Program-made: the position numbers and the translations under genes
The notes under the pieces: generated by a model
Database searches by the model: none
What the model saw: only the letters and a program-made list of their open reading frames with translations
Told to the model about the DNA's origin: nothing
Assembly: GCA_963804955.1 (NCBI GenBank)
Contig: CAWDSQ010000008.1
Span: forward strand, 1-64,000
DNA from: an uncultured delta proteobacterium
Lineage (GTDB): Bacteria; Desulfobacterota; WTBG01; CAIYCZ01; CAIRTM01
Direction of reading: 5' to 3'
DNA: 64,000 bases
Shown: positions 37,273-55,015 of the stretch, in pieces
Layout: the number at the start of each line of letters is the position of its first letter
Numbering within the stretch: the stretch's first letter is position 1

Positions 37273-37348
37273 TCCCCAGTAGCTCAGTCGGTAGAGCGGG
37301 TGGCTGTTAACCACCATGTCCGTGGTTCGAGTCCGCGCTGGGGAGCCA
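37273..37348 (+). tRNA. tRNA-Asn (GTT)
   Basis: 76 nt; acceptor TCCCCAG/CTGGGGA, anticodon arm GGTGG-CTGTTAA-CCACC, GGTTCGAGTCC T-arm, encoded CCA. Confidence 0.98.
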
Positions 37349-37353
37349 ACTTT

Positions 37354-37389
37354 AAAAGCCCGGTTCCGTTAAGGAGCCGGGCTTTTCTT
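37354..37389. terminator. Bidirectional rho-independent terminator after tRNA; same family as the terminators in repeats R1-R5
   Basis: aaaagcccggttcc-gttaa-ggagccgggctttt. Confidence 0.85.
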
Positions 37390-37417
37390 GATTCCAGAGT
37401 CAGTGTGAGCAAAGAAC

Positions 37418-38496: not shown

Positions 38497-38546
38497 TCAA
38501 AAGATGTGCAACGCTCCAGAGCTACTTTGAAAAACGATGTTGGGAA

Positions 38547-38642
38547 AATTAAAGCGTTACTGTAATCTCCCCGTGCCTAGACATGTCCGGGTTGGGGAGG
38601 CAAAAGTAAAAGCCCGATTCCTTTTGGAGCCGGGTTTTTTTT
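38547..38642 (+). repeat. att-like repeat R1
   Basis: aattaaagcgtta-ctgt-aatctccccgtgcctagacatgtccgggttggggaggca...aaaagcccgattccttttggagccgggtttt. Confidence 0.9.
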
Positions 38643-39237: not shown

Positions 39238-39432
39238 GACAAGCCTCTATGAATAGATGTTTATACATAGTATATACATTCAAAAAGATTATTCGTCAAT
39301 AGTGTTTTATTTAGTACCCCTCTTAGCTCTCCGGTCACAAGTTCAAATTCTTATTTGAAATTGCGTTTAGACGCTACGTTTAGTTTGCATCAGTAATGCG
39401 GAAGGGTTTTTTCAAAGTTGTCCGCAAAGAAA

Positions 39433-39528
39433 AATGAAAGCCTTACAGTAATCTCCCCGTGCCCAGATGGGGTCGTGATGGGGTGCCAATTTTAAAAGCC
39501 CGATTCCTTTTGGAGCCGGGCTTTTTTT
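39433..39528 (+). repeat. att-like repeat R2
   Basis: aatgaaagcctta-cagt-aatctccccgtgcccagatggggtcgtgatggggtgcca...aaaagcccgattccttttggagccgggctttt. Confidence 0.88.
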
Positions 39529-39793
39529 CAAGCAGAATCAGTCTGCCGGATTTAATATCCCGGCAGGCTTTGTACATAAGTCTGTTGGGGTAACGGTCAC
39601 GTTCCTTTCCGGCGGTTTTGACAGCCCGGCCACGAGCCTGCAGCGTGTACAGATACCAGATCTATTTTTGCCTGTATGAAGTGCTTCCCGATGGCGCAGG
39701 CAGCATATACCTGTTTCAGCGAAATCCTCGCGCGGCTGCGTCCTGCGCGCATGCTGGCGAAATCGTTCGGCGCAAGCCAGGCCTCGCTTGAGC

Positions 39794-42971: not shown

Positions 42972-43378
42972 GGCCGGTTCTTTCATAATGAATCAGCAAA
43001 CGGTGCATGTATGCGGGATCGGCAATGACAAAAGCCGGATTCCTTATCGATACTACATTGTTGAAGAGATGGATTCTCTCAGCAGCTTTAATAATTCCCT
43101 GAGGATGCCCTGCAAAGCTTTCTTTTATGCTAATCCTTGCGGCTAAAGGCAAGCAGCTGCTGTGTAAGGTGCTAGATGCCTGCTTTGGAATAGTGCAAAT
43201 ATAGGCCGATGGTTGTTATGAGTCAAGGTAAATGCCTGATCAGAATAACCTCGCGGGGGTGGGGTGAGGTGTGCGCTGAATATCATGTATCACAATGTGT
43301 TATGCTCTTTCTGAATCGCCAAAATTCCACAGTGCGGCTACTTGCCAAAACAATTTGCGGAATATTTCGATATGAAAA

Positions 43379-43474
43379 GATCAAAGACTTAAAGTAATCT
43401 CCCAGTGTCCAAACGGATCCGAGCTGGGGAGCCCCATTTAAAAGCCTGATTCCGCGAAGGAGCCGGGCTTTTTT
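43379..43474 (+). repeat. att-like repeat R3
   Basis: gatcaaagactta-aagt-aatctcccagtgtccaaacggatccgagctggggagcc...aaaagcctgattccgcgaaggagccgggctttt. Confidence 0.88.
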
Positions 43475-43897
43475 GGTGTCTGCATGGTTTATTAACGTGT
43501 TTGTTTTGCGTTATAGCGGAACAGGGAGATACTATGTCAGCCGACAAGCGCTCGGACATTTAGCTACCCGTTCTTATTGTGTCGGCGACATAATTAACGG
43601 TTGTATGCTTGCTAAAATAAGAGAAGATCGGGTTAGGCTTGAGTGCGATGGAGAAAAGGTAAGACTTTATCTGCATTGATACAGTAACAGCGTATTTTGA
43701 TATCGAGAAGCCTTCAGGTCATGTGCCTGCGCTCGGGGAATTTGGATATATCCCCCGCAGGTGAGCCGCCCTGAGGCCTAAAGATGCATGCAACCCAAAA
43801 TTTTGATATTCCCCCCAAGGTAGTAAGATAAACTGAACGGACAGCTGTTATAAAGAAAATTTGAATGTACTTTATCAGCGTTTCTGTACTCCATAGT

Positions 43898-44425
43898 TTA
43901 CAGCCGTTTTTTTTCTAACCAGTAAAACAGAAAAAGTCCGCCGGCGATAAAAAAGAGAATAATTATCCAGGGGCTCACACCCAGCATCTGGGGAAGCGTG
44001 ATCTTTCCAAAATCCCCCCATGTTAGAAGTGTTTTTTTAAGTGCAGGATAGGCCTCAGCAAAAAGGGCTGCCCCTGCAAGCATGCCAAGCACCCCCCATA
44101 GACCATCAAGCCGACCTTCTGCAAGCGCACCCACCGATGTTCCGGGACAATAGCCAAGTATACCCCAGCCGATGCCAAAAATAAGGCCTCCAGGAATAAC
44201 AGCGCCCAGAATTGTCGGCTTAACAGAGAGTGTGGCAAGGCCGAAATCCAGTAATGCATACACGCCGATCATGCCCACCATCACGGTTGAAAACATAAAT
44301 TTTACAATGGTCATGTCCATGAAGCGCAGTGCCCCAAGCTGCCGGTCATACCGAAGCACGCTGCCGCGCTGCAGAAGAAAACCAAACAGCACGCCGGTTA
44401 CCAATCCGTAGAGGAGTGTATTCAT
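43898..44425 (-). CDS. YeeE/YedE (sulfur/thiosulfate transport) family protein
   Basis: FGFLLQRG and GGLIFGIGWGILGYCPGT. Confidence 0.88.
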   Translation of the reverse strand: MNTLLYGLVTGVLFGFLLQRGSVLRYDRQLGALRFMDMTIVKFMFSTVMVGMIGVYALLDFGLATLSVKPTILGAVIPGGLIFGIGWGILGYCPGTSVGALAEGRLDGLWGVLGMLAGAALFAEAYPALKKTLLTWGDFGKITLPQMLGVSPWIIILFFIAGGLFLFYWLEKKRL

Positions 44426-44955
44426 TGTTCATCCCTCCCTCTGTACAGAATTCTGGCCGTAATAACTCCTCCGATAAAAAAACAAATGAGGGCTATAAAG
44501 CCGCTGACCGCCAGCTGTGCTGAACCACTTAGGCCATGTCCCGACGGGCAGCCATCGGCAAGGCGTGCGCCGAACATTGCAATAACGCCGCCAACAAAAG
44601 CAACTCCTGCCCGTTTGAGAATGCTACCGCCAAATCGCTTGCGCCACATATCGGGAAGAGCCTGAAGTTTATACGTGCTCGAAATTTTGGACGCAATTGA
44701 AGCGCCGAAGAAAATACCGATAACAAACATCCACTGCCAGTCGACGATAGGCGCTTCCTTCATAAAATAGTCCATCGAAGCGACTCGTTCGGGGGTGAAA
44801 ATTTTTTCTATCATACCGGTTGACCGCACGAAGGTGGTTGATGTGCCGAAAAATTTTCCAGAAAGCGCAACCGATCCGACAAGAACAAGTCCGGCGAGAG
44901 CGCCTGCAAGATAAGGATTCCAGAAGCTTTCACCCTGTGTTGTCCTCATGCTCAT
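44422..44955 (-). CDS. YeeE/YedE family protein
   Basis: WNPYLAG and FGARLADGCPSGHGLSG. Confidence 0.88.
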   Translation of the reverse strand: MSMRTTQGESFWNPYLAGALAGLVLVGSVALSGKFFGTSTTFVRSTGMIEKIFTPERVASMDYFMKEAPIVDWQWMFVIGIFFGASIASKISSTYKLQALPDMWRKRFGGSILKRAGVAFVGGVIAMFGARLADGCPSGHGLSGSAQLAVSGFIALICFFIGGVITARILYRGRDEQ

Positions 44956-45169
44956 TATGGCCTCCCTTCAAAATAGTATTTTGTTTCCGGCCTCCCCGCC
45001 TCATAAAATTCCCTGCAGCCCGTATGGCGGTTGCATCCTGACAGGTACCGGCTTCGTGGGAGACTGTCCATACATATACGGTTTTGTAATGTGCAAAACA
45101 TTTGCCCTGTAATGACCATGCTGCCTGTTCGGTCAGAATCAAAACCGGCAATCCGTTCACAGGTAAGTA

Positions 45170-46516
45170 TCAGGAACCGCTTTTTTTTATTGGGGCTGCA
45201 AGACCGTGCTTTTTCATTTTATACCTCAGGACCCGCTCGCTAATCCCCAGCGCTTCGGCTGCCCGTGTCTGTACCCAGCCGGTTTGTTCAAGCGCGGCAC
45301 ACAGCAGTTCCTTTTCCATGGCCTCAAGGCTTTGCTCAAGCGTGCCCTGCGTCGAGGCCTGATACTGACGCACTTCAAAGGGCAGAACGGAGGCGTCGAT
45401 CAGGGTACCCCGGGCCAGGGTGATGCTGCGCTGCACGATATGCTCCAGCTCCCGGACATTGCCGGGATAGGGATATTTGATCAGGGCATCCAGCGCTTCG
45501 GGGGCAAGGCGATAGGGCCGGTCGGCATAGCGCTGCAGGAAAAACTCTATCAGCGGGGGGATGTCTTCCCGCCGCGATCGCAGGGGCGGAATTTCCAGTT
45601 CAAGCACCTTGATGCGGTAGTAGAGGTCCTGCCGGAACAGACCGTCTGCGGCAAGCCGGCTGATGTCGCGGTTGGTAGCAGCGATCAGCCGGGCGTCGAC
45701 ATTGATCTGCTGTTCGCCACCGATTCGGGCGAAATGTTTTTCCTGAATGGCCCGCAGCAGTTTGGGCTGCATCGGCAGCGGCAGCTCGGTGATTTCATCC
45801 AGAAACAGCGTGCCTCCATCGGCCAGCTCAAAATGACCGCGGCGCCTGCCGGCAGCGCCGGTGAAAGAGCCCTTTTCATGGCCGAACAGCTCGCTTTCAA
45901 AAAGATTTTCGGGAATAGCCGCGCAGTTGAGTGCAATAAAGCCACCGTCTTTTCTGGTGCTGAGCAGGTGTATGAGATGGGCAAGAAGCTCCTTGCCCGT
46001 GCCGGTTTCGCCCTGAATCAGGACGGGCCAGGGGCTGCCGGCCAGCCTGCCGGCCAGCGACAGCACGCGCTTCATGGCCTGGCTTTTGGCGATGATGTTC
46101 AGAGGCAGATCCCGGTTCTCGATTGCTGCTTCAATATCGGTCACATCGCCGTCAATAGCCGCCTGCTGCTCGATGGTCTGAATTTTTACAAGCAGCTCGT
46201 CCAGGTCGACAGGTTTTTCAAGAAACTCATCGGCGCCCAGCTTCATGACCGCAACGGCCGTATGCACGCTGCTGAAGGCCGTTATCATGATGGCGCGCAC
46301 CAGCGGATTAACCTCCTTCAGGTGCTGTAAAAGCTCTTCACCGCTTTCGCCGGGCATGCGCTGATCAAGCAGCACGAGCTGCACGGGCTCTCGCTGAAAA
46401 ACGGCCCGGGCCTCCTGCCCGCTGGCAGCGGTGAGAACGTCATGGCCCTGGTGCCTGAGAAAGCCGCTGAGCATGTCGCGCTGGCTGGCTTCGTCGTCCA
46501 CAACAAGTATGTTCAT
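45170..46516 (-). CDS. Sigma54-dependent response regulator (NtrC/ZraR family)
   Basis: Receiver, GETGTGKE, ESELFGHEKGSFTGA and Fis-type HTH. Confidence 0.93.
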   Translation of the reverse strand: MNILVVDDEASQRDMLSGFLRHQGHDVLTAASGQEARAVFQREPVQLVLLDQRMPGESGEELLQHLKEVNPLVRAIMITAFSSVHTAVAVMKLGADEFLEKPVDLDELLVKIQTIEQQAAIDGDVTDIEAAIENRDLPLNIIAKSQAMKRVLSLAGRLAGSPWPVLIQGETGTGKELLAHLIHLLSTRKDGGFIALNCAAIPENLFESELFGHEKGSFTGAAGRRRGHFELADGGTLFLDEITELPLPMQPKLLRAIQEKHFARIGGEQQINVDARLIAATNRDISRLAADGLFRQDLYYRIKVLELEIPPLRSRREDIPPLIEFFLQRYADRPYRLAPEALDALIKYPYPGNVRELEHIVQRSITLARGTLIDASVLPFEVRQYQASTQGTLEQSLEAMEKELLCAALEQTGWVQTRAAEALGISERVLRYKMKKHGLAAPIKKSGS

Positions 46517-48078
46517 GCCGGTTGATCTCCTGTTGGCTTGGCCGGGAATAGTATAGTGATTAAAAGAATGCCGCCGTCCGCCGGCTGTATGGCAAGAGTC
46601 CCGCCGTGCTCCTGAACAATGCGCCGCACGATGGCAAGGCCAAGGCCCGTGCCGTCCGGCCTGCCGGTAAAATAGGGCTCGGTGATCCGTGCGACTGCTT
46701 CCCCGGGCAGGGAAAAGCCGCCGTTGGTCATCGCCAGGCGAATGTCACGGCCCAGGTCGTCTATGACTATCTTTATAAATCCGCCACGGGGCTGGGCTTC
46801 CATTGCGTTTTTGAGGAGGTTTTCAATGACCTGCTCGATCAGATCCTGATCTCCGGAAACAGGCCGTGCCGAATCAGCCACAAGCTCCACGCTGATGCCC
46901 TGCTGCCGGCAGCGAGCCTCGTAGAGCCGCAGCACTTTTTCAACGCTGCGGTCAAGCCGCACGGCATGCCGCACCAGGGCGCGAGGCACAGCATAGCTCA
47001 GCAGATCGCTTACAATGCCGTTGGTCCTGCGAACGGCGTCACGCATGATCTCAAGCAGGGCCAGGTTCTCACCACTCAGTGCCGGCGCTTCTTTCTGCAG
47101 GCGCTGCAGTCCCATGCTCAGGGCGTTCAAGGGGTTTCGTATCTCATGCGCGATTGCGGCCGCGGCTTTTCCCAGTGCCGCATCCTGCCGTTCGTCAGCG
47201 ATCTTTTTTTCATATGCGCTGATCTGCGCCAGATGCTTTGCCTGCTGCCGGTACAGCACAAGCGACAGCACCAGCCCCAGGCAGGCAACCGCTGCGCTGA
47301 AGCCGATAAAATCGCGCCACAGCCGCTGCATGGCCGTTTCAAGATGCGCGGCATCAAGGCCTACCGTCATGCCGGTTTCGCCCACGGTCATGTTCACTTC
47401 AGCAACCGCCGCAGGGCCGCTGCCCATAAGTTCGACCTGCTGCTCACGCCCCGTCTGCGCAGAGTTGTTTCCGGCAGGCATCGTTCTGATGTACCGAATA
47501 CCCGGAAGCCGCGTGATGGTAGCTATAACCGCTTCAAGGCCGAGCTCTTTTTGGAGCTTTTCTATCCGGGCCGCTTCAACCCCTACCAGCACCCATCCTC
47601 CCTTGTTCGAGTCGGGCCAGCGCAGCACATATAAGTGGGATGCAGCATTATACTGGAGCAACGGCGTTTTTTCAGGATGCAGAGACAGAGCTTTAGTCCA
47701 GCCTGGAGGACCTTCCACAACAGCCCCGCCGGGTCGCGCTATATATATGCCGGCCAGGCTCGCTTCACGGGCAAACCCCGACAGTTCGCCTGCGGTAAAC
47801 GGCTCGATAGCATCAAGATAGAGGATAAAGCGGGCAGTATTGCCCAGAAAGGTCTGCAGCAGTTCCTCGGACACCTGCTGCGACAGCAGCGCACCTTTTG
47901 CGCTTAACTCAATGACATTGGCGACAAGCCCTGAGGCCTCCTTGATTCTTGCGATAAAGGCATCACGCGTCACCTGCGCCTGCCATAGAAAATAGCCGAC
48001 AATGGCTGCAAACATACAGCCGAAGGCCAGCAGGTTGCTGACCCAAAGCGGCAGCGACCTACCGGCCGCCCTGGCCAC
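46513..48078 (-). CDS. Membrane sensor histidine kinase (ZraS-like)
   Basis: GTG 48078 with GGAGG RBS; two TMs; AHEIRNPL and GTGLGL. Confidence 0.85.
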   Translation of the reverse strand: MARAAGRSLPLWVSNLLAFGCMFAAIVGYFLWQAQVTRDAFIARIKEASGLVANVIELSAKGALLSQQVSEELLQTFLGNTARFILYLDAIEPFTAGELSGFAREASLAGIYIARPGGAVVEGPPGWTKALSLHPEKTPLLQYNAASHLYVLRWPDSNKGGWVLVGVEAARIEKLQKELGLEAVIATITRLPGIRYIRTMPAGNNSAQTGREQQVELMGSGPAAVAEVNMTVGETGMTVGLDAAHLETAMQRLWRDFIGFSAAVACLGLVLSLVLYRQQAKHLAQISAYEKKIADERQDAALGKAAAAIAHEIRNPLNALSMGLQRLQKEAPALSGENLALLEIMRDAVRRTNGIVSDLLSYAVPRALVRHAVRLDRSVEKVLRLYEARCRQQGISVELVADSARPVSGDQDLIEQVIENLLKNAMEAQPRGGFIKIVIDDLGRDIRLAMTNGGFSLPGEAVARITEPYFTGRPDGTGLGLAIVRRIVQEHGGTLAIQPADGGILLITILFPAKPTGDQPA

Positions 48079-48658
48079 CCCGGCCTCCTCCGCTCCCGCC
48101 TGCGCCGCCTCCACCACCACCGCCTGAGCCTCCACCACCACCGCCTGAGCCACTTCCTCCGCCGAACCCGCCACCACCACCGCTTGAGCCACTTCCCCCG
48201 CCGAACCCTCCTCGGCCACCACCTCCACCGGCCCCTCCTCCGAAGCCGCTACCGTGGTTGCCGCCGCCTGCCGAACCCTTGCCCAGGCGCTGCCGAACCC
48301 CGGTCGAGTCTTGCGGGCCGGCGCCCCGTTCACCTGGCTGGCCTGCTGGCCCTTTGCCCCTGCGGTCATTGAAATATGAGTTTGATGCGGAAAAACGACC
48401 GGTGCTTTTATCCATAGAACCCCATACCCGGACAAGCGCGTTCTGCTGAGTATTTTTCGGCAGGGCCGTTCGTTCGATCGTAATGACCTTAGGTTTCTGG
48501 CCGGCATCATCACGTAAGTCGGCAGGGCCGTCGACTACTTCCATCTGAACTGTACCCTTGTCCTGATCAATGGAGATGACCCGGCCGAGTATCAGCTCTT
48601 CGGCGCTGCAGTACGAGATGCACAGCAGTGAAATTAAAAATACCAGGAAAAACCGCAT
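48059..48658 (-). CDS. Exported protein with Gly-rich C-terminal tail
   Basis: Signal peptide; DSTGVRQRL followed by poly-Gly. Confidence 0.7.
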   Translation of the reverse strand: MRFFLVFLISLLCISYCSAEELILGRVISIDQDKGTVQMEVVDGPADLRDDAGQKPKVITIERTALPKNTQQNALVRVWGSMDKSTGRFSASNSYFNDRRGKGPAGQPGERGAGPQDSTGVRQRLGKGSAGGGNHGSGFGGGAGGGGGRGGFGGGSGSSGGGGGFGGGSGSGGGGGGSGGGGGGGAGGSGGGRGGQGGR

Positions 48659-49683
48659 TGCGTCACCATCTGATGATAGAACTCAGAATTTACTTTTGAA
48701 TTGTTTTTAAGCCACGTCATTTTGCCGTAGACCTCCACCGGGCCGAAAAACCGGCTGACCTGCGCTCCCGCGAAAAACGTTTTATCAGTGCGATTCGTGT
48801 GCAGCGGGCTTTCATCATAGGCCGTGCGCCACAGCCCCGACTCAAGCTGCAGCCGCCAGACTTCGGTCATATCCCAGGTGAGACGGGTGCTTGCATGCAC
48901 CTGCCGGTAGGTTTCAAAGTCGTCGGTAGAATGAAGCCGCGAGTAGCCAGTGAGGATACTGCCGTATACTGTCGGCGTCAGAAACAGGTCGCAGATAAAG
49001 TCGCCGTTTGTCAGATGATCATTGCGCGAGGTTTTCACGACCGACAGCTCCTGCAGATCAGCCTCGGCCCCGCTGCCGCTGCCAGCCAGAGAAAGAAGCC
49101 CCGCGGCAGATGCTTCCTGGCCTTGCGGCTCGGCATAGCTGTAGGAGGAGTTTTTGTAGTTCAGGCGGCTGTAGGTCCCTTCAAGGGACAGTGTCATAAA
49201 ACGGGAATATATCCAGCTCAGCCGCAGGCCGGCAAGATACTGGTCCCGATCGTCCTCCGGCATGTAATCATCGCGGTAAGAATTCGCCTCCACAAGCAGC
49301 GCCGGCACCAGCCGGCTTCCCAATACCGGACGGGCCAGCTCGCCGCGGGCTCTTAAAAAATAATTGTCGCCCACGCGCGTATAGTTTTGATAACTGCCCT
49401 CCAGCAGACCCATAAAACTTGCGCCACCCCCAAGCTGCCAGGTATCGGACATGCCGGCCCGATGGAATATAAAGCCGGAGCCTTTCCGGTTATTGGTCTG
49501 CGCGGGGTTGTCATTATATCCCGCAGACGTCTCCAGGCTGAAATCTGCGCAATCAGCGACTGATGGCCATGCATACGACATAAACACCAAGCTCCCGCAG
49601 ATGAGCACAAGCAGCCTCTCCCGCCAAATGCCTTTTTCTATCTGCTCAGATACTCCGGAAATTTTTTTCGTAAGGCTCGCCAA
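48634..49683 (-). CDS. Putative outer-membrane beta-barrel protein
   Basis: AGYNDN start of mature part, alternating strands, C-terminal FSWYF. Confidence 0.7.
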   Translation of the reverse strand: MASLTKKISGVSEQIEKGIWRERLLVLICGSLVFMSYAWPSVADCADFSLETSAGYNDNPAQTNNRKGSGFIFHRAGMSDTWQLGGGASFMGLLEGSYQNYTRVGDNYFLRARGELARPVLGSRLVPALLVEANSYRDDYMPEDDRDQYLAGLRLSWIYSRFMTLSLEGTYSRLNYKNSSYSYAEPQGQEASAAGLLSLAGSGSGAEADLQELSVVKTSRNDHLTNGDFICDLFLTPTVYGSILTGYSRLHSTDDFETYRQVHASTRLTWDMTEVWRLQLESGLWRTAYDESPLHTNRTDKTFFAGAQVSRFFGPVEVYGKMTWLKNNSKVNSEFYHQMVTQCGFSWYF

Positions 49684-49922
49684 AACCTGCTTGCTCCGGG
49701 GGTTCGCTTTTGTTGGCTAAAAAAGCTCTGCTCAAGGCCAGTACCGCACTCGCAAGATCCAGCCCAAAATTGTTTCTACTTTTACTTTACTGCACATGCA
49801 TTGTATTGCAATAATTATTTTCTATTGTGCAGGCGGGCGGCAAGCACGGCTTGCGAACCCCAAAACCGTGGTTGCCGCTGCCCTCTGGAACTGCACATCC
49901 GCCCGCATAGCATGCTTACTGC

Positions 49923-50444
49923 TTACTTTTTCCCGCCGTACCGGCCACCCCTCCACAGGGGTTTTCCCGTATCGGGATCGCGCAGCTGCACCTCCGTGCC
50001 GTTCACGGTGATCGTCATGGCTATATTGCGCTCAACGCCGGAAAAGTTCACCGTATAGCCGCTGGCCGACACTTCGTCGCCAACCTCCGGCCGGTCAACA
50101 TCAAGCTTGTCCCAGTAGCGCACAGGGCCGATGCCGTACACGGTAGCATTGTCTTCTGCCGTTGCAATCACCATGCCCTGGCCGTAGCCTATGCTGATAA
50201 CAGTTCCTTCATACACAAAAGGCGTTCCTTCAAGAATACCCTGGGCTATTCCGCTGTAGTTTGCCTGCGTGCAGGTGCCGTTGCCCTGTCCGCCATTTGT
50301 GCCATTATACTGCTGGCCGCCCTTGGTGCCGTTACCATTGCCGTCGCTGCCATTGCCACCATTACCATTGCCGGCATAGCCTGAACCTGCTCCGATCAGC
50401 ACCGCCAGAGCAATAATAAAAGCTGTATATAAGGTCTTTTTCAT
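49923..50444 (-). CDS. Exported Gly/Asn-rich OB-fold-like protein
   Basis: Signal peptide; GIGPVRYW and LRDPDTGKPLWRGG. Confidence 0.75.
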   Translation of the reverse strand: MKKTLYTAFIIALAVLIGAGSGYAGNGNGGNGSDGNGNGTKGGQQYNGTNGGQGNGTCTQANYSGIAQGILEGTPFVYEGTVISIGYGQGMVIATAEDNATVYGIGPVRYWDKLDVDRPEVGDEVSASGYTVNFSGVERNIAMTITVNGTEVQLRDPDTGKPLWRGGRYGGKK

Positions 50445-50570
50445 TTTATCTCTCCTGTTTTTTTGTTTTTCATTCACCGATTATTAAACTCTTTCTGGCT
50501 TTTTCACTATTCATCTTCCGGGGGGCATCACCGTCCTTTCTCACAGTCAACGATTCTGCCCATTTGTCAT

Positions 50571-50673
50571 TACACGAATAATGCCAAAACATTTTTCATG
50601 TTTTTTCAGCAAGTTGCAATAATCGGCACTAAGCCTTTTCGACAATCATTGTTTTCACCCGACAAAATTGTCG
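50571..50673 (-). promoter_or_regulatory. Possible sigma54 promoter with CGACA-type enhancer sites
   Basis: Minus strand TGGCATTATTCGTGTA (GG-N10-GT, variant -12); palindrome cgacaaaattgtcg 50660-50673 and a partial copy at 50640. Confidence 0.4.
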
Positions 50674-50845
50674 AACAGTAGGATTTTGACTTCTCACTAC
50701 AGTAAAGGTTCAGCATACTTCTTTTGGAGAATACTTTTCAACTTGCCAGTTATGTATGGTGGTTCGATCAACCCCCAGCTTTTCAGCTGAGTGACAGTTG
50801 ATGGTATCCTTTATTTGAAGGGGTTTTTTAAAGGCGAAGAAGGCA

Positions 50846-50940
50846 AATTAAAGGGTTACGGCAATCTCCCCGTGCCCGGATGTGTCCGGGGTGGAGAGCC
50901 AAATTTAAAAGCCCGATTCCGCAAGGAGTCGGGCTTTTTT
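50846..50940 (+). repeat. att-like repeat R4
   Basis: aattaaagggtta-cggc-aatctccccgtgcccggatgtgtccggggtggagagcca...aaaagcccgattccgcaaggagtcgggctttt. Confidence 0.92.
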
Positions 50941-51155
50941 ATTCATAATGCCGCTGTTTTTAAGCTCGTAAGAATGGAAAAGCAGACCGATTATATATTT
51001 GTCAATTTATTTCCTTTCTTCCCCGCGCCTGAAGGGCTGCTTTCCTCGGAGGTTGTGAGAAGGGGGGCGCCATGCTATATTAACAGCAATTGGGTGGTTG
51101 ACCCGTAACGCAACAAATTGCGAAATGCGCATATCAACAGAGAAAGGAATAAGGC

Positions 51156-51432
51156 ATGAAAAAAGTACAAGAATTGATCATTCTTTGCGTTGCCGCTATC
51201 TTTATAGCGGCTGCAGGATTCAGCAGTGAAGGCAGATGTGACGAGCATCCAAAAGCAGACCATCCGGCTGTCGAAGCACCAAAGGCTGCTCCTCCACAGG
51301 CTGAACAGCCTGTTGCGGACCAACCAAAGGCCGACCAACCAAGGCCGACCACAAAGCTGAGCACCCCAAAGCTGAACATCCACAGGCAGAACCTCCCAAG
51401 GCCGACCATCCGTCATCGGAACATCCGCGATG
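51156..51432 (+). CDS. Small exported protein of (K/Q)A(D/E)(H/Q)P pentapeptide repeats; one indel near 51350
   Basis: Signal peptide, then DEHP KADHP...AEQP ADQP KADQP KAEHP KAEHP KADHP SEHPR. Confidence 0.65.
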
Positions 51433-52819
51433 ATGGTAAGGTCTGTGAAGCGTCAGTTGACATGCCTCTCGGCATGCGGCTGCCTGTTTGCACTGCTGGC
51501 GGCCCTTGTTGTAGCTCAAGGCTCTATCCGGGAGGCATGGGCGGTCACGGAGAGCAAGCCTGCCGCCTCCGCTCTGCCGGCCGTTGTGACCGCTGATATT
51601 CAGGCCGGCATCGAGCGCCACATCGAGCAGCAAGCGCGCCTGGGTGAGGGCTACTTTCGCCTGCAGTTCAAGGATCGTGAGCTGCGGCTGAAACTGGTGC
51701 GGGTACACACCGAGTATCTTGCAAACCTGGGTCCCCGGCGGCATTTCGCCTGCGTTGACCTGGCGGATGTGAGCGGCGACGTGTACGACGTTGATTTTTT
51801 CCTTTCGGGCGATCCCGGCTCCATGACCGTTACCGAGACGACCGTCCACAAGATAAACGGTCAGCCTTACTACGCGTGGGAGCAGAAAAAGGACGGGACC
51901 TGGCACCGGATACCCATCGAGCGCGCATCGGAAGGGCATTTCGGCGTTATCCGTGAGCGAGACAACTTTGAGTTCAAGTATTGGGCGAGGCTGCCGGAGC
52001 TGACAGCCCCGGCGCGCATGTGGCTTCCACTGCCTGAAACGGACCGGTTCCAGACGATTGAAATTGTCTCTATGCTGGTTCCCGGCAGGCAGCGCATTGT
52101 TCATGACCGCAAGCACGGCAACCGCGTGCTGATTTTGGACCTGGCTCCTGACGACAGCGGACGGGACAATCGATATCCGTTTTGCAGTGCGGCGCAGCGA
52201 GAAATCCGCCTATGCAGCGCCGAAACCCGAGGAAATGCACCTGGCGCCTGACAGGCTCGTGCCTATCACCGACGAGTTTCAGGCAACGGCGCGCACGGTC
52301 GTCGCCGGCAAAAAGGAAGACCTCGTGCGGGCCCGTGCGCTCTACGATCATGTGATAGACCGCATGCGCTACATGAAATATGGCGATGGCTGGGGCAAGG
52401 GGGACGCCGTCTACGCCTGCAGCATTCGAACCGGCAATTGCACGGATTTTCATGCCTATTTCATCGCGCTGGCCCGGTCGATCGGCCTGCCGGCGCGTTT
52501 CGCGATAGGAGCAGGCATCCCCTCCGAGAGAAACGACGGCGGAATAGACGGCTATCACTGCTGGGTAGAGTTTTATGCCGATGGCAAGTGGTGGCCTGTG
52601 GACATCAGCGAAGCAGATAAGTATACAGCCCTTTCAACATATTATTTCGGCCATCATCCGGCCAACCGTTTCGAATTTAGCCGGGGCCGTGATTTGGAAG
52701 TTGACCCGCTTCCGGCATCGGGACCGATCAATTTTCTTGCTTACCCTCTGCTGGAAGTTGCAGGACAACCGGTCAGGGCCGACGTCGCGTTTTCGTTCAA
52801 GAGAACGGTTCAGCATTAA
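51430..52819 (+). CDS. Exported transglutaminase-like domain protein; indel near 52165
   Basis: GNCTDFH, YHCWVEFY and WWPVD give the Cys-His-Asp triad. Confidence 0.85.
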
Positions 52820-52840
52820 TGGGGGCTTAATTTAATCGAA

Positions 52841-52923
52841 CAGCAATCTCCCCGTGCCCGGATGTGTCCGGGTTGGAGACCCAAAATTAAAAGCCCGACT
52901 CCTTGCGGAATCGGGCCTTTTTT
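52841..52923 (+). repeat. att-like repeat R5
   Basis: cagcaatctccccgtgcccggatgtgtccgggttggagaccca...aaaagcccgactccttgcggaatcgggcctttt. Confidence 0.92.
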
Positions 52924-53165: not shown

Positions 53166-53826
53166 TCAATCCATGACACAACGCACACTAATGCCGTAGT
53201 CCTTGGTTACGCCTGTATAGTCCCTTAAAATTCCGCTCTGGGTCATATCCAGCATCATGGTCCAGGCGTGGGTGTCGTCGTACTCAGTAGAGGTCCAGAT
53301 CATGATGTGGTACCCCAGCATTTTAAAAGTGCCCGCAGGATTACGGTTACCGCTTGGCAGAGCGGAAAACCCGCTTGAGTTTGTGGCTCCCGTATTAGGG
53401 CTGTGCCACAGGCCGGTTCCGGCTTCAATTGTTCCGGTTGCTTTCAGCCTCCCACCGGCAATTTTGCTTATTTCAAATCCATCGTTTGGCTCCGAGCGAG
53501 GGTCCAAATATTTTACAAGGGTTGACCACTCCTCGTCACTTCCCAGGTGCCAGCCGGCAGGGCAGGCAGTCAATGCTGTTTCCCAGTCATAAAGCCTGCC
53601 ATAGGTTTCGCAATTTTCAGGATCATCATCATAACACCAGCTGTTCCCGGTCTCGTAGTTAAGGTCCTGCGCAAGCCAGGTCTGATCTCCGAGCTTCACC
53701 GTTTTGTATGTCTGCCCATCACGTGCATCCGTCATTTCACCCAAAACGGGTTTTATTGCAACCACCGGTACATAAAAACAGAATTGCCATCATGATTAGT
53801 AAAAATGGTTTAATTGTTTTTTTCAT
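53166..53826 (-). CDS. FISUMP (Fibrobacter succinogenes major paralogous)-like domain lipoprotein; indel near 53750
   Basis: DARDGQTYKTVKLGDQTWLAQDL, YGRLYDW, CPAGWHL and SVRC. Confidence 0.85.
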
Positions 53827-53897: not shown

Positions 53898-54593
53898 TTA
53901 GTCCTTAAGGCAACGCACGGAAAGGCTTGTGGCCCTTTCCATGCTCCACTGACCTTCCTCCGCCCGGTAAATGGACTTGAGGCCGTAATCAAGGACACGG
54001 AACCAAACTTTGCTGTTGGCGTTTTCAGTAGAGGTCCAGTAGATGGCATGCCTGCCCATAACATCGCAAGAGCCATCGTCGTAACAGACACCGGCAGGCA
54101 CAGCGGAAAATTTGCTTGAGTTTGTGGCTCCTACATTAGGGTAGTTCCATAACCCGGTTTCGTCTCGTAAGTTGCCGGTTGCTTTCAGCATACCACCAGC
54201 CCATATGCTTTCTTCCACAACGCTGGAACCCGCTTGAGGGTCCGCCTTGGGATCCAGATATTTTATAAGGGTTGACCACTCCTCGTCACTTCCCAGATGC
54301 CAGCCGGCAGGGCAGGCTGTTTTCGATGCTTCCCAGTCGTATAGCCTGCCATAAATTTCGCAATTTGCAGTGTCGTCATCATAGCACTTACTTTCATCGC
54401 TCGCGTAGTTAAGGTCCCGCGCAAGCCAGGTCTGCTCTCCAAGGGTTACTGTTTGATAGGTCTGTGCATCGCGAGCATCTGTCATTTCTCCCAAAACAGG
54501 TGTAGGATCAGGAGGTGGGGTTTTTTTGCAACCACCTGCAAATAAAAATAACAAGGCCATCATTATTAGTGAAAATGTTTTAATTCCCTTCAT
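53898..54593 (-). CDS. FISUMP-like domain lipoprotein (tandem paralog)
   Basis: Lipobox AGGC; same motifs; TTGACG-17-TATTTT promoter at 54652-54680. Confidence 0.87.
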   Translation of the reverse strand: MKGIKTFSLIMMALLFLFAGGCKKTPPPDPTPVLGEMTDARDAQTYQTVTLGEQTWLARDLNYASDESKCYDDDTANCEIYGRLYDWEASKTACPAGWHLGSDEEWSTLIKYLDPKADPQAGSSVVEESIWAGGMLKATGNLRDETGLWNYPNVGATNSSKFSAVPAGVCYDDGSCDVMGRHAIYWTSTENANSKVWFRVLDYGLKSIYRAEEGQWSMERATSLSVRCLKD

Positions 54594-54934
54594 ATGCTTT
54601 CTCCTTGTTAAGGGTTTTATTTGCCTTGGCAGGCGTCTTTGCACTAGATTTAAAATATCAAAAATATAAATTTACGTCAATATGTTTTATGGACTCATAG
54701 AGGCTCTTTGATCTTAAATCGTAAATCTAACCTTAAATCGTAAATCGTGTCTTCGACCGTAAAACTGACCACTCAAATGACCTGACTTACAGGATTTCGG
54801 CCAGAAGCCTGGCGTTCAAACTATAGGAAAAATTTAATTTTTAAGATGTCGTGTTCAGCAAAGGGCCCAAATCAAAAGGCTTCTGAAGATTCGGAGGGCC
54901 GGTGAGAACGGGGCAATAAACAATGGCGTGGTCC

Positions 54935-54974
54935 GTAATTTCCCGTGCCCGGATGTGTCCGCGCCGGGGAGCCA
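54935..54974 (+). repeat. Terminal att-like repeat R6 with near-exact tRNA-Asn 3' end
   Basis: gtaatttcccgtgcccggatgt-gtccgcgccggggagcca versus tRNA gtccgcgctggggagcca (one mismatch in 18). Confidence 0.9.
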
Positions 54975-54981
54975 TATATAT

Positions 54982-55015
54982 ACTGCCGCAGCTGTAAACG
55001 AAAGCGGCAGTTTTG
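54982..55015 (+). terminator. Distinct terminator after R6
   Basis: actgccgc...gcggcagt-tttg. Confidence 0.65.

Follow-up and report, generated by a model that had tools for sequence, protein, structure and literature searches.

Mobile elements that enter tRNA genes use three crossover sublocations in their target, among them the asymmetric 3' end, and islands at asn1 are part of that record (10.1101/2020.11.02.365908). In the streptococcal cis-mobilizable elements (CIMEs; PMC5704250) inserts accumulate in tandem with partial tRNAs, some of them devoid of integration genes, and inserts are stacked behind the transfer-messenger RNA (tmRNA) gene in the ssrA islands of Dehalococcoides (PMC3146451) and behind tRNA genes, again with partial tRNAs, in the tycheposons of Prochlorococcus (10.1101/2020.12.28.424599). 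The locus treated here lies in a 64,000-nucleotide stretch of DNA from an uncultured delta proteobacterium (the window, by which the whole stretch is meant), in which six co-oriented repeats of about 100 nt downstream of a tRNA-Asn gene split 18 kb into six cassettes. The fourth repeat, R4, contains a bulged palindrome that an earlier, sequence-only reading had likened to a tRNA minihelix or a folded attC-like site. Our analysis indicates that R4 is probably one of six attachment (att)-type junctions of small mobile cassettes stacked at the extreme 3' end of the tRNA-Asn gene.

Like other att sites in tRNA genes, the locus has a direct repeat of the tRNA 3' end and an insert that varies while the flank on the 5' side of the tRNA is conserved; no integrase was found inside the element among the open reading frames (ORFs) tested in the window, in the loci of relatives and in metagenome loci (28, 69 and 33, respectively). 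The high-pathogenicity island (HPI) carries a 17-bp asn repeat. The P4-type integrases of Enterobacteriaceae (ICEKp, HPI-type islands) likewise take the last bases of tRNA-Asn as their target, at the asymmetric 3' sublocation, but the asn islands are large, each has its own integrase, and they bear no sequence relation to the module found here (10.1101/2020.11.02.365908).

The CIMEs resemble the locus in that their inserts, behind a tRNA that stays intact, lie between co-oriented repeats of its 3' end and retain att sites but no integration genes (PMC5704250); in the arrays studied here transfer genes, too, are absent from the tested ORFs. No adjoining integrative and conjugative or integrative and mobilizable element was found at the loci fetched, where contigs often end at the arrays. 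The arrays differ from the CIMEs in that every unit lacks an integrase, units of one gene occur, cassettes recur reordered, and a left module of about 50 nt that is not tRNA sequence is shared (PMC5704250). The Dehalococcoides ssrA islands likewise stand in a row downstream of a single-copy tRNA-like gene and are delimited by a repeat of its 3' end (20 bp there); some of them lack an integration module, and directly before the repeat they have a further conserved motif, which cannot be aligned to the gene and may be compared with the left block described below (PMC3146451). Those islands, however, measure 10-30 kb, and 16 of them carry a CcrB-like serine recombinase module (PMC3146451), whereas no serine recombinase (PF00239) was found in the window's own genome (G000) or in G002 and G003 of the same genus, all of them incomplete (G000 87%), and none lies in any array. 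Tycheposons also take in cargo at tRNA genes, where new arrivals displace earlier units outward and partial tRNAs and remnants stay behind; they come with a tyrosine or large serine recombinase of their own and in many cases with replication genes, and the units here have neither (10.1101/2020.12.28.424599).

The likeness to integrons consists of one fixed entry site, small cassettes that end in imperfect palindromes, a crossover in the far arm, toxin-antitoxin cassettes and cassettes without a recombinase. In contrast to integrons, the entry is the end of a tRNA gene with no intI beside it, each cassette has a terminator, and the genes, which have promoters of their own, may point either way. 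Tests for an integron attC found no GTTRRRY (the crossover window reads CTGGGGAGCCA(A)), no R/L boxes, no conserved R''/R' and L''/L' pairing and no conserved folding. A word search of open-access full texts returned no description of such Desulfobacterota arrays or of a minihelix-like att site, which is not proof of absence. What sets the locus apart from the known stacks is scale and uniformity: recombinase-free units, down to one gene, share one module of about 100 bp and recur reordered.

Cassette reassortment and the crossover window

Flanks of 400 nt on each side were compared for 50 sites, comprising 42 repeats or variants and 8 tRNA ends. Of 15 pairs that share a left flank, 14 differ in the right flank, and 16 of the 17 pairs sharing a right flank differ in the left one. 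The MazEF cassette of the window also lies between two repeats in G003, and the cassette with DUF5615, DUF433 and UPF0175, which directly follows the tRNA in G000, is the fifth unit there; the MazEF cassette and this set thus stand at positions 2 and 1 in G000 and at 2 and 5 in G003. Such a change of order requires excision and reinsertion, so that stacking alone is insufficient. Protein identity between the two genomes is 89-96% for MazEF and DUF5615/DUF433 (tblastn) and 56-96% for the DUF5615/DUF433/UPF0175 set as a whole. The OmpA cassette is found again in metagenome contig L201, and cassettes with TetR, PNPOx and aldo/keto reductase or with TetR and RND efflux genes recur with different neighbours in G002, G003, G034 and metagenome contigs.

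The position of the exchange can be read from sites that share one cassette. In each of two trios (L061_10874, L065_1350 and L202_5637; L061_2990, L069_3963 and L198_434) the same left cassette, with flanks 97-99% identical, has three different right neighbours, and in both trios identity continues through ...GGGGAGCCA(A), GAGCCA(A), and then ends. From the other side, the right flank of the window tRNA matches the flank after the internal repeat L061_2606 in G003 at 94% over 395 nt; the two have the same right cassette and unrelated left parts, and identity starts at CTGG. The crossover window is therefore CTGGGGAGCCA(A), 11 nt that comprise the acceptor 3' strand of the tRNA, the discriminator base and CCA. 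As judged from these alignments, the leader, left block and centre of a repeat belong to the left cassette and the spacer and terminator to the right one, and the cassette standing first in the row supplies the terminator of the tRNA gene. The recurrence of reordered cassettes and a switch that falls inside CTGGGGAGCCA(A) indicate that the repeats are site-specific recombination junctions. The earlier proposal of a recombination site, as opposed to random decay of old tRNA ends, is thereby borne out, cassettes being reassorted at the repeats between genomes.

Each repeat begins with a leader of about 22 nt, followed by CTCCC(C/A)GTGCC(C/T)(A/G)GA and a variable stretch of about 10 nt, and continues with (T/C)GGGGAGCCA, an AT-rich spacer and a GC-rich hairpin with a T-run. 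The letters of R4 at 50866-50901, which a terminator hairpin follows, are exactly those quoted in the sequence-only reading: CTCCCC (50866-71), GTG (50872-74), CCCGGA (50875-80), TGTG (50881-84), TCCGGG (50885-90), GT (50891-92), GGAGAG (50893-98) and CCA (50899-901). The outer stem has one C.A mismatch, since GGAGAG stands in place of GGGGAG, and this GGAGAG is one of the core substitutions of the window array. The reported TCCGGG in R1, R4 and R5, where the tRNA reads TCCGCG, was likewise confirmed; R6 agrees with the tRNA, R2 has GTCGTG and R3 TCCGAG. TCCGGG lies to the left of the mapped crossover and is therefore part of the cassette's own arm, so that it need never have sat in a working tRNA. 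It pairs perfectly with CCCGGA in R4 and R5 only, and among 32 copies of the repeat the hexamer is TCCGCG in 10, GTCGTG in 9, TCCGGG in 6 and of other types in 7. A sigma-54 promoter considered on the reverse strand of R4 and R5 (GGGCAC...TTGC) was rejected because its GG-to-GC spacing is 12, not 10.

The repeats share 10-18 nt of identity with the end of tRNA-Asn. Outside G000, 17 of 26 copies carry the 10-nt core TGGGGAGCCA unchanged, but none of the six window copies has it intact (1-2 substitutions each). With all six cores substituted and no cognate recombinase found, the window array is probably frozen, its recombination having stopped.

Distribution of the repeat and conservation of its parts

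In G000 the repeat family is largely confined to one locus. The 16-mer CCCGGATGTGTCCGGG occurs twice exactly and once at 1 mismatch; at up to 3 mismatches there are 5 matches against 0.42 expected, a number reached in 0 of 100 shuffles, and the 20-mer of CCA plus terminator has 6 matches against 0.06 expected. A search of G000 (4.26 Mb, 36 contigs) with nhmmer returned the six copies and the tRNA end at E 1e-13 to 1e-29 and all others at no better than E 7e-5, so that the family in this genome consists of the tRNA-Asn locus, a divergent copy on contig C14 and two marginal matches. The tRNA-Asn (GTT) gene is intact (ARAGORN, Rfam), is the sole tRNA gene in the window (ARAGORN) and is single-copy among the 49 tRNAs of G000. 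A weak, degenerate look-alike (GTACAGTAC-CCTCCCCGGG and a terminator; nhmmer E 7e-5) lies 60 kb downstream on the same contig, at G000:C8:114873-114962.

A covariance model built from the six window copies was searched in 61 related genomes. Full-length repeats are present in 8 of the 42 genomes of the class: G000 and all four other genomes of its genus (G001-G004), G013 of the same family, G020 of the same order and G034 of the same class. Nine genomes of the class have a match at E <= 1e-8, that of G016 being just the tRNA with its terminator, and neither the order-wide nor the class-wide model search gave further carriers. The tRNA-Asn gene is followed by repeats of the same orientation in G003, G013 and G002 as well, and synteny of the upstream flank (PNP, RR-HATPase) extends to G003 and G013 (tblastn). 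Scanning metagenomes with a 21-mer of the left block gave 10 contigs, all 10 with true copies and several with arrays. A scan of genome contigs with CTCCCMGTGCCCRGAYG, a pattern that is too loose, gave 119 stretches, nearly all of them chance matches in unrelated phyla, with true repeats in 2 loci titled 'uncultured delta proteobacterium' and 'uncultured Thermodesulfobacteriota bacterium'. The scan of viral contigs gave 2 loci, neither of which the covariance model matches, and blastn of a near-consensus copy against plasmids and phages gave no match.

The alignment of leader and core comprised 32 copies, drawn from 8 genomes and from 8 contigs of metagenomes, with tRNA genes, seven variant forms, two copies with a true T-arm and duplicates of included copies set aside. 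The sequence-only reading had asked for homologues to be aligned and covariation tested, and this check lends no support to a conserved fold. For the nested palindrome of the R4 type, 74.8% of the cells pair against 74.6% in shuffled alignments (201 of 500 shuffles are as high), and a double change occurs at two pairs against 1.6 expected. The two inner pairs that perfect R4 and R5 hold in 6 and 5 of the 32 copies. An alternative register common in the relatives, with an outer stem, a bulged G and an inner CCC/GGG, reaches 80.0% against 78.6% (7 of 500 shuffles), and its covariation is not significant (45 of 500 shuffles). As single-stranded DNA (ssDNA) the core of 33-34 nt has a median folding free energy (dG) of -4.6 kcal/mol and a median z of -0.6, which does not support the idea that it folds like an integron attC. 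The bulged palindrome is thus real in R4 and R5 but is not a general property of the repeat core, the inner arms of R2 and R3 being unpaired in that register. Across the aligned copies the nested palindrome is not conserved, and the perfect inner palindrome of R4 and R5 is a local variant that does not characterize the family.

Conservation lies in the sequence of the left block and the core, and not in pairing: mean column conservation is 0.92 for the left block and 0.93 for the core, which is under constraint from the tRNA, compared with 0.72 for the centre and 0.71 for the leader. The left block holds CCCAG twice in direct order and the core holds the inverse, CTGGG, an arrangement that resembles repeated binding sites for one protein; the left block is likely to be the protein-binding part. 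Its being an inverted copy of the acceptor 3' strand of the tRNA accounts for the minihelix look. A box of the integration host factor (IHF) type lies at the same position in the leader, exact in 12 of the 32 copies and with 1 mismatch in 8 more, as scored against WATCAANNNNTTR, which we take to be the IHF-type consensus; it is inexact in all six window leaders, and the genome background is 0.036 matches per kb. An Rfam scan of 36000-56500 at E up to 5 gave the tRNA as its sole true match, the sub-threshold matches at the repeats (PyrR, Thr-leader, ncr1175; E 0.085 to 3.4) being driven by the terminators, and ARAGORN found no tRNA at the repeats.

Several variant sites are also derived from tRNA-Asn. 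The copy at C14:223327-223423 (minus strand; L075:7328-7424), the lone family copy of G000 outside the tRNA-Asn locus, and a similar one in G001 (L071:5087-5187) join the family leader and CTCCCAGTA, with which the tRNA begins, directly to a genuine T-arm (TCCGTGGTTCGAGTCCGCG). Judged by its letters, this form is in outline a true acceptor/T-arm minihelix. The C14 variant carries an exact IHF-like box, and the two variants have a left flank that is common to both genomes and a right flank that is not. In the metagenome array L203 a tRNA-Asn-like 3' half begins at the anticodon loop (L203:2204) and another fragment at the T-loop (L203:408), and a different hairpin stands ahead of CTGGAGAGCCA at L062:1101, L061:2606 and L196:7552. 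The variety of these forms within the arrays indicates that the tRNA-Asn locus has been used by elements with several crossover sublocations. A cassette of about 0.3 kb for a small protein with a GIY-YIG nuclease domain recurs in G003, G004 and metagenome contigs (L062:732-1073, L197:143-394, L061:2698-2990) and ends in a different tRNA-Asn-derived site, either the 3' half from the anticodon loop or the derived hairpin. A cassette holding a nuclease alone is odd cargo and may bear on mobility. In one metagenome array a 1399-aa RHS-repeat protein is carried as a cassette (L203:3376-7575).

Proposed exchange and its alternatives

In the exchange that we favour, each cassette would be presumably circular and would carry one module of about 100 bp, ordered as IHF-like box, conserved block ATCTCCCAGTGCCCAGA, variable centre of about 10 nt, core TGGGGAGCCA, AT-rich spacer and intrinsic terminator. 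The recombinase would be encoded elsewhere and is probably a tyrosine integrase of the type that uses the asymmetric 3' end of tRNA genes; it would swap strands of a double-stranded substrate within the core, the sequence with which the tRNA also ends. The tRNA would thereby be regenerated and would acquire the spacer and terminator of the cassette, the left block of the cassette would land before the displaced old tRNA end and so create a repeat, and recombination between any two repeats would excise or reorder cassettes. The left block ATCTCCCAGTGCCCAGA would most likely serve as a second binding site for the same protein, and the IHF-like box may be bound as well.

The recombinase was sought in several ways. 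No recombinase was found by Pfam among 28 ORFs of the window array, chosen out of the 141 ORFs of the window, and no recombinase family in 69 of the 108 ORFs of the loci of relatives (ORFs far from the arrays or overlapping repeats were left out) or in 33 of the 38 metagenome-locus ORFs (five duplicate a cassette of G002/G003 and were left out). Tyrosine recombinase (PF00589) matches of G000 lie on contigs C20, C32, C35 and C22 and at 165 kb on C8, 110 kb off; in G000-G004 and G013 all such matches are on other contigs or more than 100 kb from the arrays, and the only tyrosine recombinases common to these six genomes are Xer-like. The dif and pdif sites are 28 bp long, with an 11-6-11 layout and an ATAA-N6-TTAT centre. 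Taking this as the consensus, no dif-type ATAA-N6-TTAT motif was found in the repeat sequences. Y1 transposases are present at two G000 loci far from the array. The small tyrosine recombinase at C8:165095-165781 was rejected as a candidate, its close homologues occurring only in G003, G036, G030, G040, G011 and G014 without tracking the arrays, and so was an IntI-like query, which matched 23 of 61 genomes but not G001, G003, G004, G013, G020 and G034 and does not track them either. The minus strand of contig C32 of G000 carries, near 99.8-101.3 kb (L207:7792-9288), an integron-integrase gene broken in two by some 670 nt: one piece corresponds to positions 1-156 of TIGR02249 (184.8 bits) and the other to positions 232-314 (119.6 bits). 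The gene thus lacks the part that holds the IntI-specific insert, and no attC-like repeat array was seen within 9 kb to the left or right.

Several observations weigh against the favoured exchange. No cognate recombinase was found, and the shared Xer-like enzymes do not match a site that is unlike dif; since the genomes are incomplete metagenome-assembled genomes (G000 87%), a recombinase acting in trans and one that has been lost are indistinguishable. Classical tyrosine recombinases have core sites in an inverted pair, but no such pair is evident directly beside the mapped core. The cores of R4, R5 and R6 do fold well (z -2.4 to -2.7), being the only 3 of the 32 with z below -2, and the arms are weakly associated (left CCCAG with right CTGGG in 20 copies, left CCCCG with right CGGGG in 4; Fisher p 0.013, which is overstated since the copies are related), a hint that complementarity is kept. 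The MazEF cassette of G000 (R2) and that of G003 (L061_10032) have the same leader and left block but wholly different 10-nt centres, while the centre, core and terminator of R2 are those that precede the OmpA cassette in L201. A single crossover does not fit this case, in which strands must also have been exchanged where the centre begins on its left, just after CCCAGAT. Either gene conversion between repeats or a recombinase that cleaves at two points, one to each side of the centre, would explain it.

The proposal that the palindrome provides inverted core sites for a recombinase holds only in part: the repeat is a recombination site, but the crossover lies in the outer right arm and not at the centre of the dyad, so that the palindrome does not amount simply to two core sites flanking an overlap. 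A broader reading, possible but to be held tentatively, is that of an integron analogue anchored on a tRNA. The 3' end of tRNA-Asn would be a fixed capture site for self-contained promoter/terminator cassettes with the module of about 100 bp; a recombinase supplied by a gene elsewhere in the genome or by a transient helper would insert, excise and reshuffle them, and exchange could start to the left or right of the centre, with replication finishing it.

Ordinary decay is an unlikely explanation. The cassettes would then be remnants of integrase-bearing islands, shuffled later by homologous recombination or gene conversion between repeats of about 100 bp. In its favour, decayed members (CIMEs) and partial tRNAs are familiar from tandem islands, the other tRNA-Asn fragments in the arrays (L203:2204, L203:408) show that the locus has served several integrase types, an exchange in the left block is implied by the MazEF exception, and six of the six G000 cores are mutated. 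Decayed islands would, however, hardly be expected to yield units down to about 0.3-0.9 kb and one gene (L062 805-1101; window R1-R2) with no integrase fragment among the tested ORFs (28, 69 and 33), or to leave the same 50-nt left module in every unit, at a conservation of 0.92 across three families of the class. The switch points, moreover, coincide in all close comparisons, and homologous recombination would scatter them.

Still less probable, in our estimate, is a folded single-strand site of the kind represented by integron attC or the attP of CTX phage, in which the outer stem CTCCCAG/CTGGGGAG would recreate the duplex of the tRNA end, one strand would be exchanged and replication would resolve the product. 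The crossover does lie in the distal (right) arm of the palindrome, as in the R' of attC; the arrays lack a recombinase of their own, hold one-gene and toxin-antitoxin cassettes and are reordered in a way that needs excision and reinsertion; the arms are associated (p 0.013); and exchange points on both sides of the centre would fit strand exchange starting from either side. Yet pairing does not exceed that of shuffled alignments (201 of 500; 7 of 500 in the alternative register, with covariation at 45 of 500 not significant), folding of the core as ssDNA is weak (median dG -4.6, median z -0.6, 3 of 32 below -2), and the duplex, at only about 16 bp, would not accommodate two monomers of the recombinase. 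A GTTRRRY box is missing as well, the integron-integrase relic of G000 is split and lies on C32 with the query unmatched in six of the seven other array-bearing genomes, and the window cassette genes are co-oriented with the site in just one of six cases. Finally, an RNA element, namely a plus-strand acceptor-like minihelix ending in CCA before the terminator and serving as a substrate of RNase P/Z or the CCA-adding enzyme, is very improbable, for although stretches of 80 nt fold as RNA at z -2.6 to -6.3 (largely owing to the terminator) and the C14:223327-223423 and G001 copies join a true T-arm to CTCCCAGTA, Rfam matches the tRNA itself only, covariation is absent, a 4-nt loop replaces the T-loop, the two halves have different histories, which is unexpected for a single RNA gene, and five of the six window repeats follow opposite-strand genes, so that no mRNA would end there and the suggested RNase P/Z processing signal fits poorly, with co-oriented gene ends at one of six repeats.

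Layout of the locus and significance

The favoured reading, that of stacked cassettes bounded by att-type junctions, is laid out by feature in Table 1.

Table 1. Features of the tRNA-Asn locus, in window coordinates
Feature	Position	Strand	Remarks
tRNA-Asn (GTT), anchor of the array	37273..37348	+	ARAGORN; Rfam tRNA 65.1 bits
Shared crossover core TGGGGAGCCA, last 10 nt of tRNA-Asn	37339-37348	+	From junction mapping
AT-rich spacer and intrinsic terminator 3' of the tRNA	37349..37390	+	Moves with cassette 1
Cassette 1, tRNA to R1			DUF5615 (PIN-like)/DUF433 and UPF0175 toxin-antitoxin genes (Pfam)
R1	38545..38642	+	Core 38593-38602, TGGGGAGGCA, 1 substitution
Cassette 2, R1 to R2			MazF/MazE (MazEF; Pfam)
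R2	39431..39528	+	Core 39479-39488, TGGGGTGCCA, 1 substitution
Cassette 3, R2 to R3			OmpA, two DUF4398 proteins, SLT-like protein (Pfam)
R3	43377..43474	+	Core 43425-43434, TGGGGAGCCC, 1 substitution
Cassette 4, R3 to R4	43475..50843	-	All genes on the minus strand (Pfam)
R4	50844..50941	+	Repeat holding the described palindrome
R4 leader	50844..50865	+	50846-50858, AATTAAAGGGTTA, 1 mismatch from the assumed IHF-type consensus
R4 left block CTCCCCGTGCCCGGA	50866..50880	+	Family consensus CTCCCAGTGCCCAGA; inverted copy of CTGGGGAG of the core
R4 variable centre TGTGTCCGGGG	50881..50891	+	Includes TCCGGG
R4 crossover core TGGAGAGCCA	50892..50901	+	1 substitution relative to the tRNA
R4 spacer and two-way terminator hairpin	50902..50941	+	Stem 50911-50920 / 50925-50934, then T-run to 50940
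Cassette 5, R4 to R5			Three unnamed ORFs and a transglutaminase-like gene (Pfam)
R5	52826..52923	+	Core 52874-52883, TGGAGACCCA, 2 substitutions
Cassette 6, R5 to R6			Two Fib_succ_major genes (Pfam)
R6, last repeat	54917..55014	+	Core 54965-54974, CGGGGAGCCA; different terminator, 54983-55010

Upstream of the tRNA-Asn gene lie PNP, RR-HATPase and a 159-aa ORF (Pfam). The genes of cassette 4 comprise two sulfur-transport halves, a sigma-54 response regulator, a histidine kinase, a porin-like protein and a Gly-rich secreted protein. In five of the six units genes are on the minus strand, and R5 is the only repeat at which a co-oriented gene ends. The GC content per kb ranges from 0.445 to 0.60 across the cassettes, with cassette 4 (0.45-0.60) unlike its neighbours, which gives the locus a mosaic composition.

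Some further sequence features were observed in the cassettes. Directly after the R2 terminator stands a second GC-rich hairpin (CAGTCTGCCGG...CCGGCAGGCT; 39540-39574), which is conserved with the OmpA cassette in metagenome contig L201 and has a weak, sub-threshold ncr1175-like Rfam match (29.7 bits). In cassette 4, short-period C-rich repeats on the plus strand (48066-48233 and 50316-50373) are the complement of Gly-rich coding repeats on the minus strand and sit in the N-terminal part of the histidine-kinase ORF or in a 199-aa ORF, and in a 184-aa ORF that looks secreted. Imperfect repeats CCAAAGGC(T/C)GA(C/A)CA(T/A)CC at 51230-51420 lie inside ORF 51156-51596, which overlaps the next ORF, 51430-52251, and would encode repeats of the His-Pro-Lys-Ala type. 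The adjacent Fib_succ_major genes (53500-53815 and 54250-54585), together with their upstream regions, form a tandem duplication with about 82% identity.

For annotation, the locus teaches that 'tRNA-like' palindromes behind tRNA genes can be by-products of att design and are not necessarily RNAs. A module as short as about 100 bp with a crossover window of 11 nt makes the proposed exchange directly testable once a candidate recombinase is found. If the cassettes truly move without a recombinase of their own, the tRNA-Asn gene would serve as the base of an integron-like gene-capture site, and uncultured anaerobes would have an extra route for exchanging toxin-antitoxin, efflux and envelope genes.

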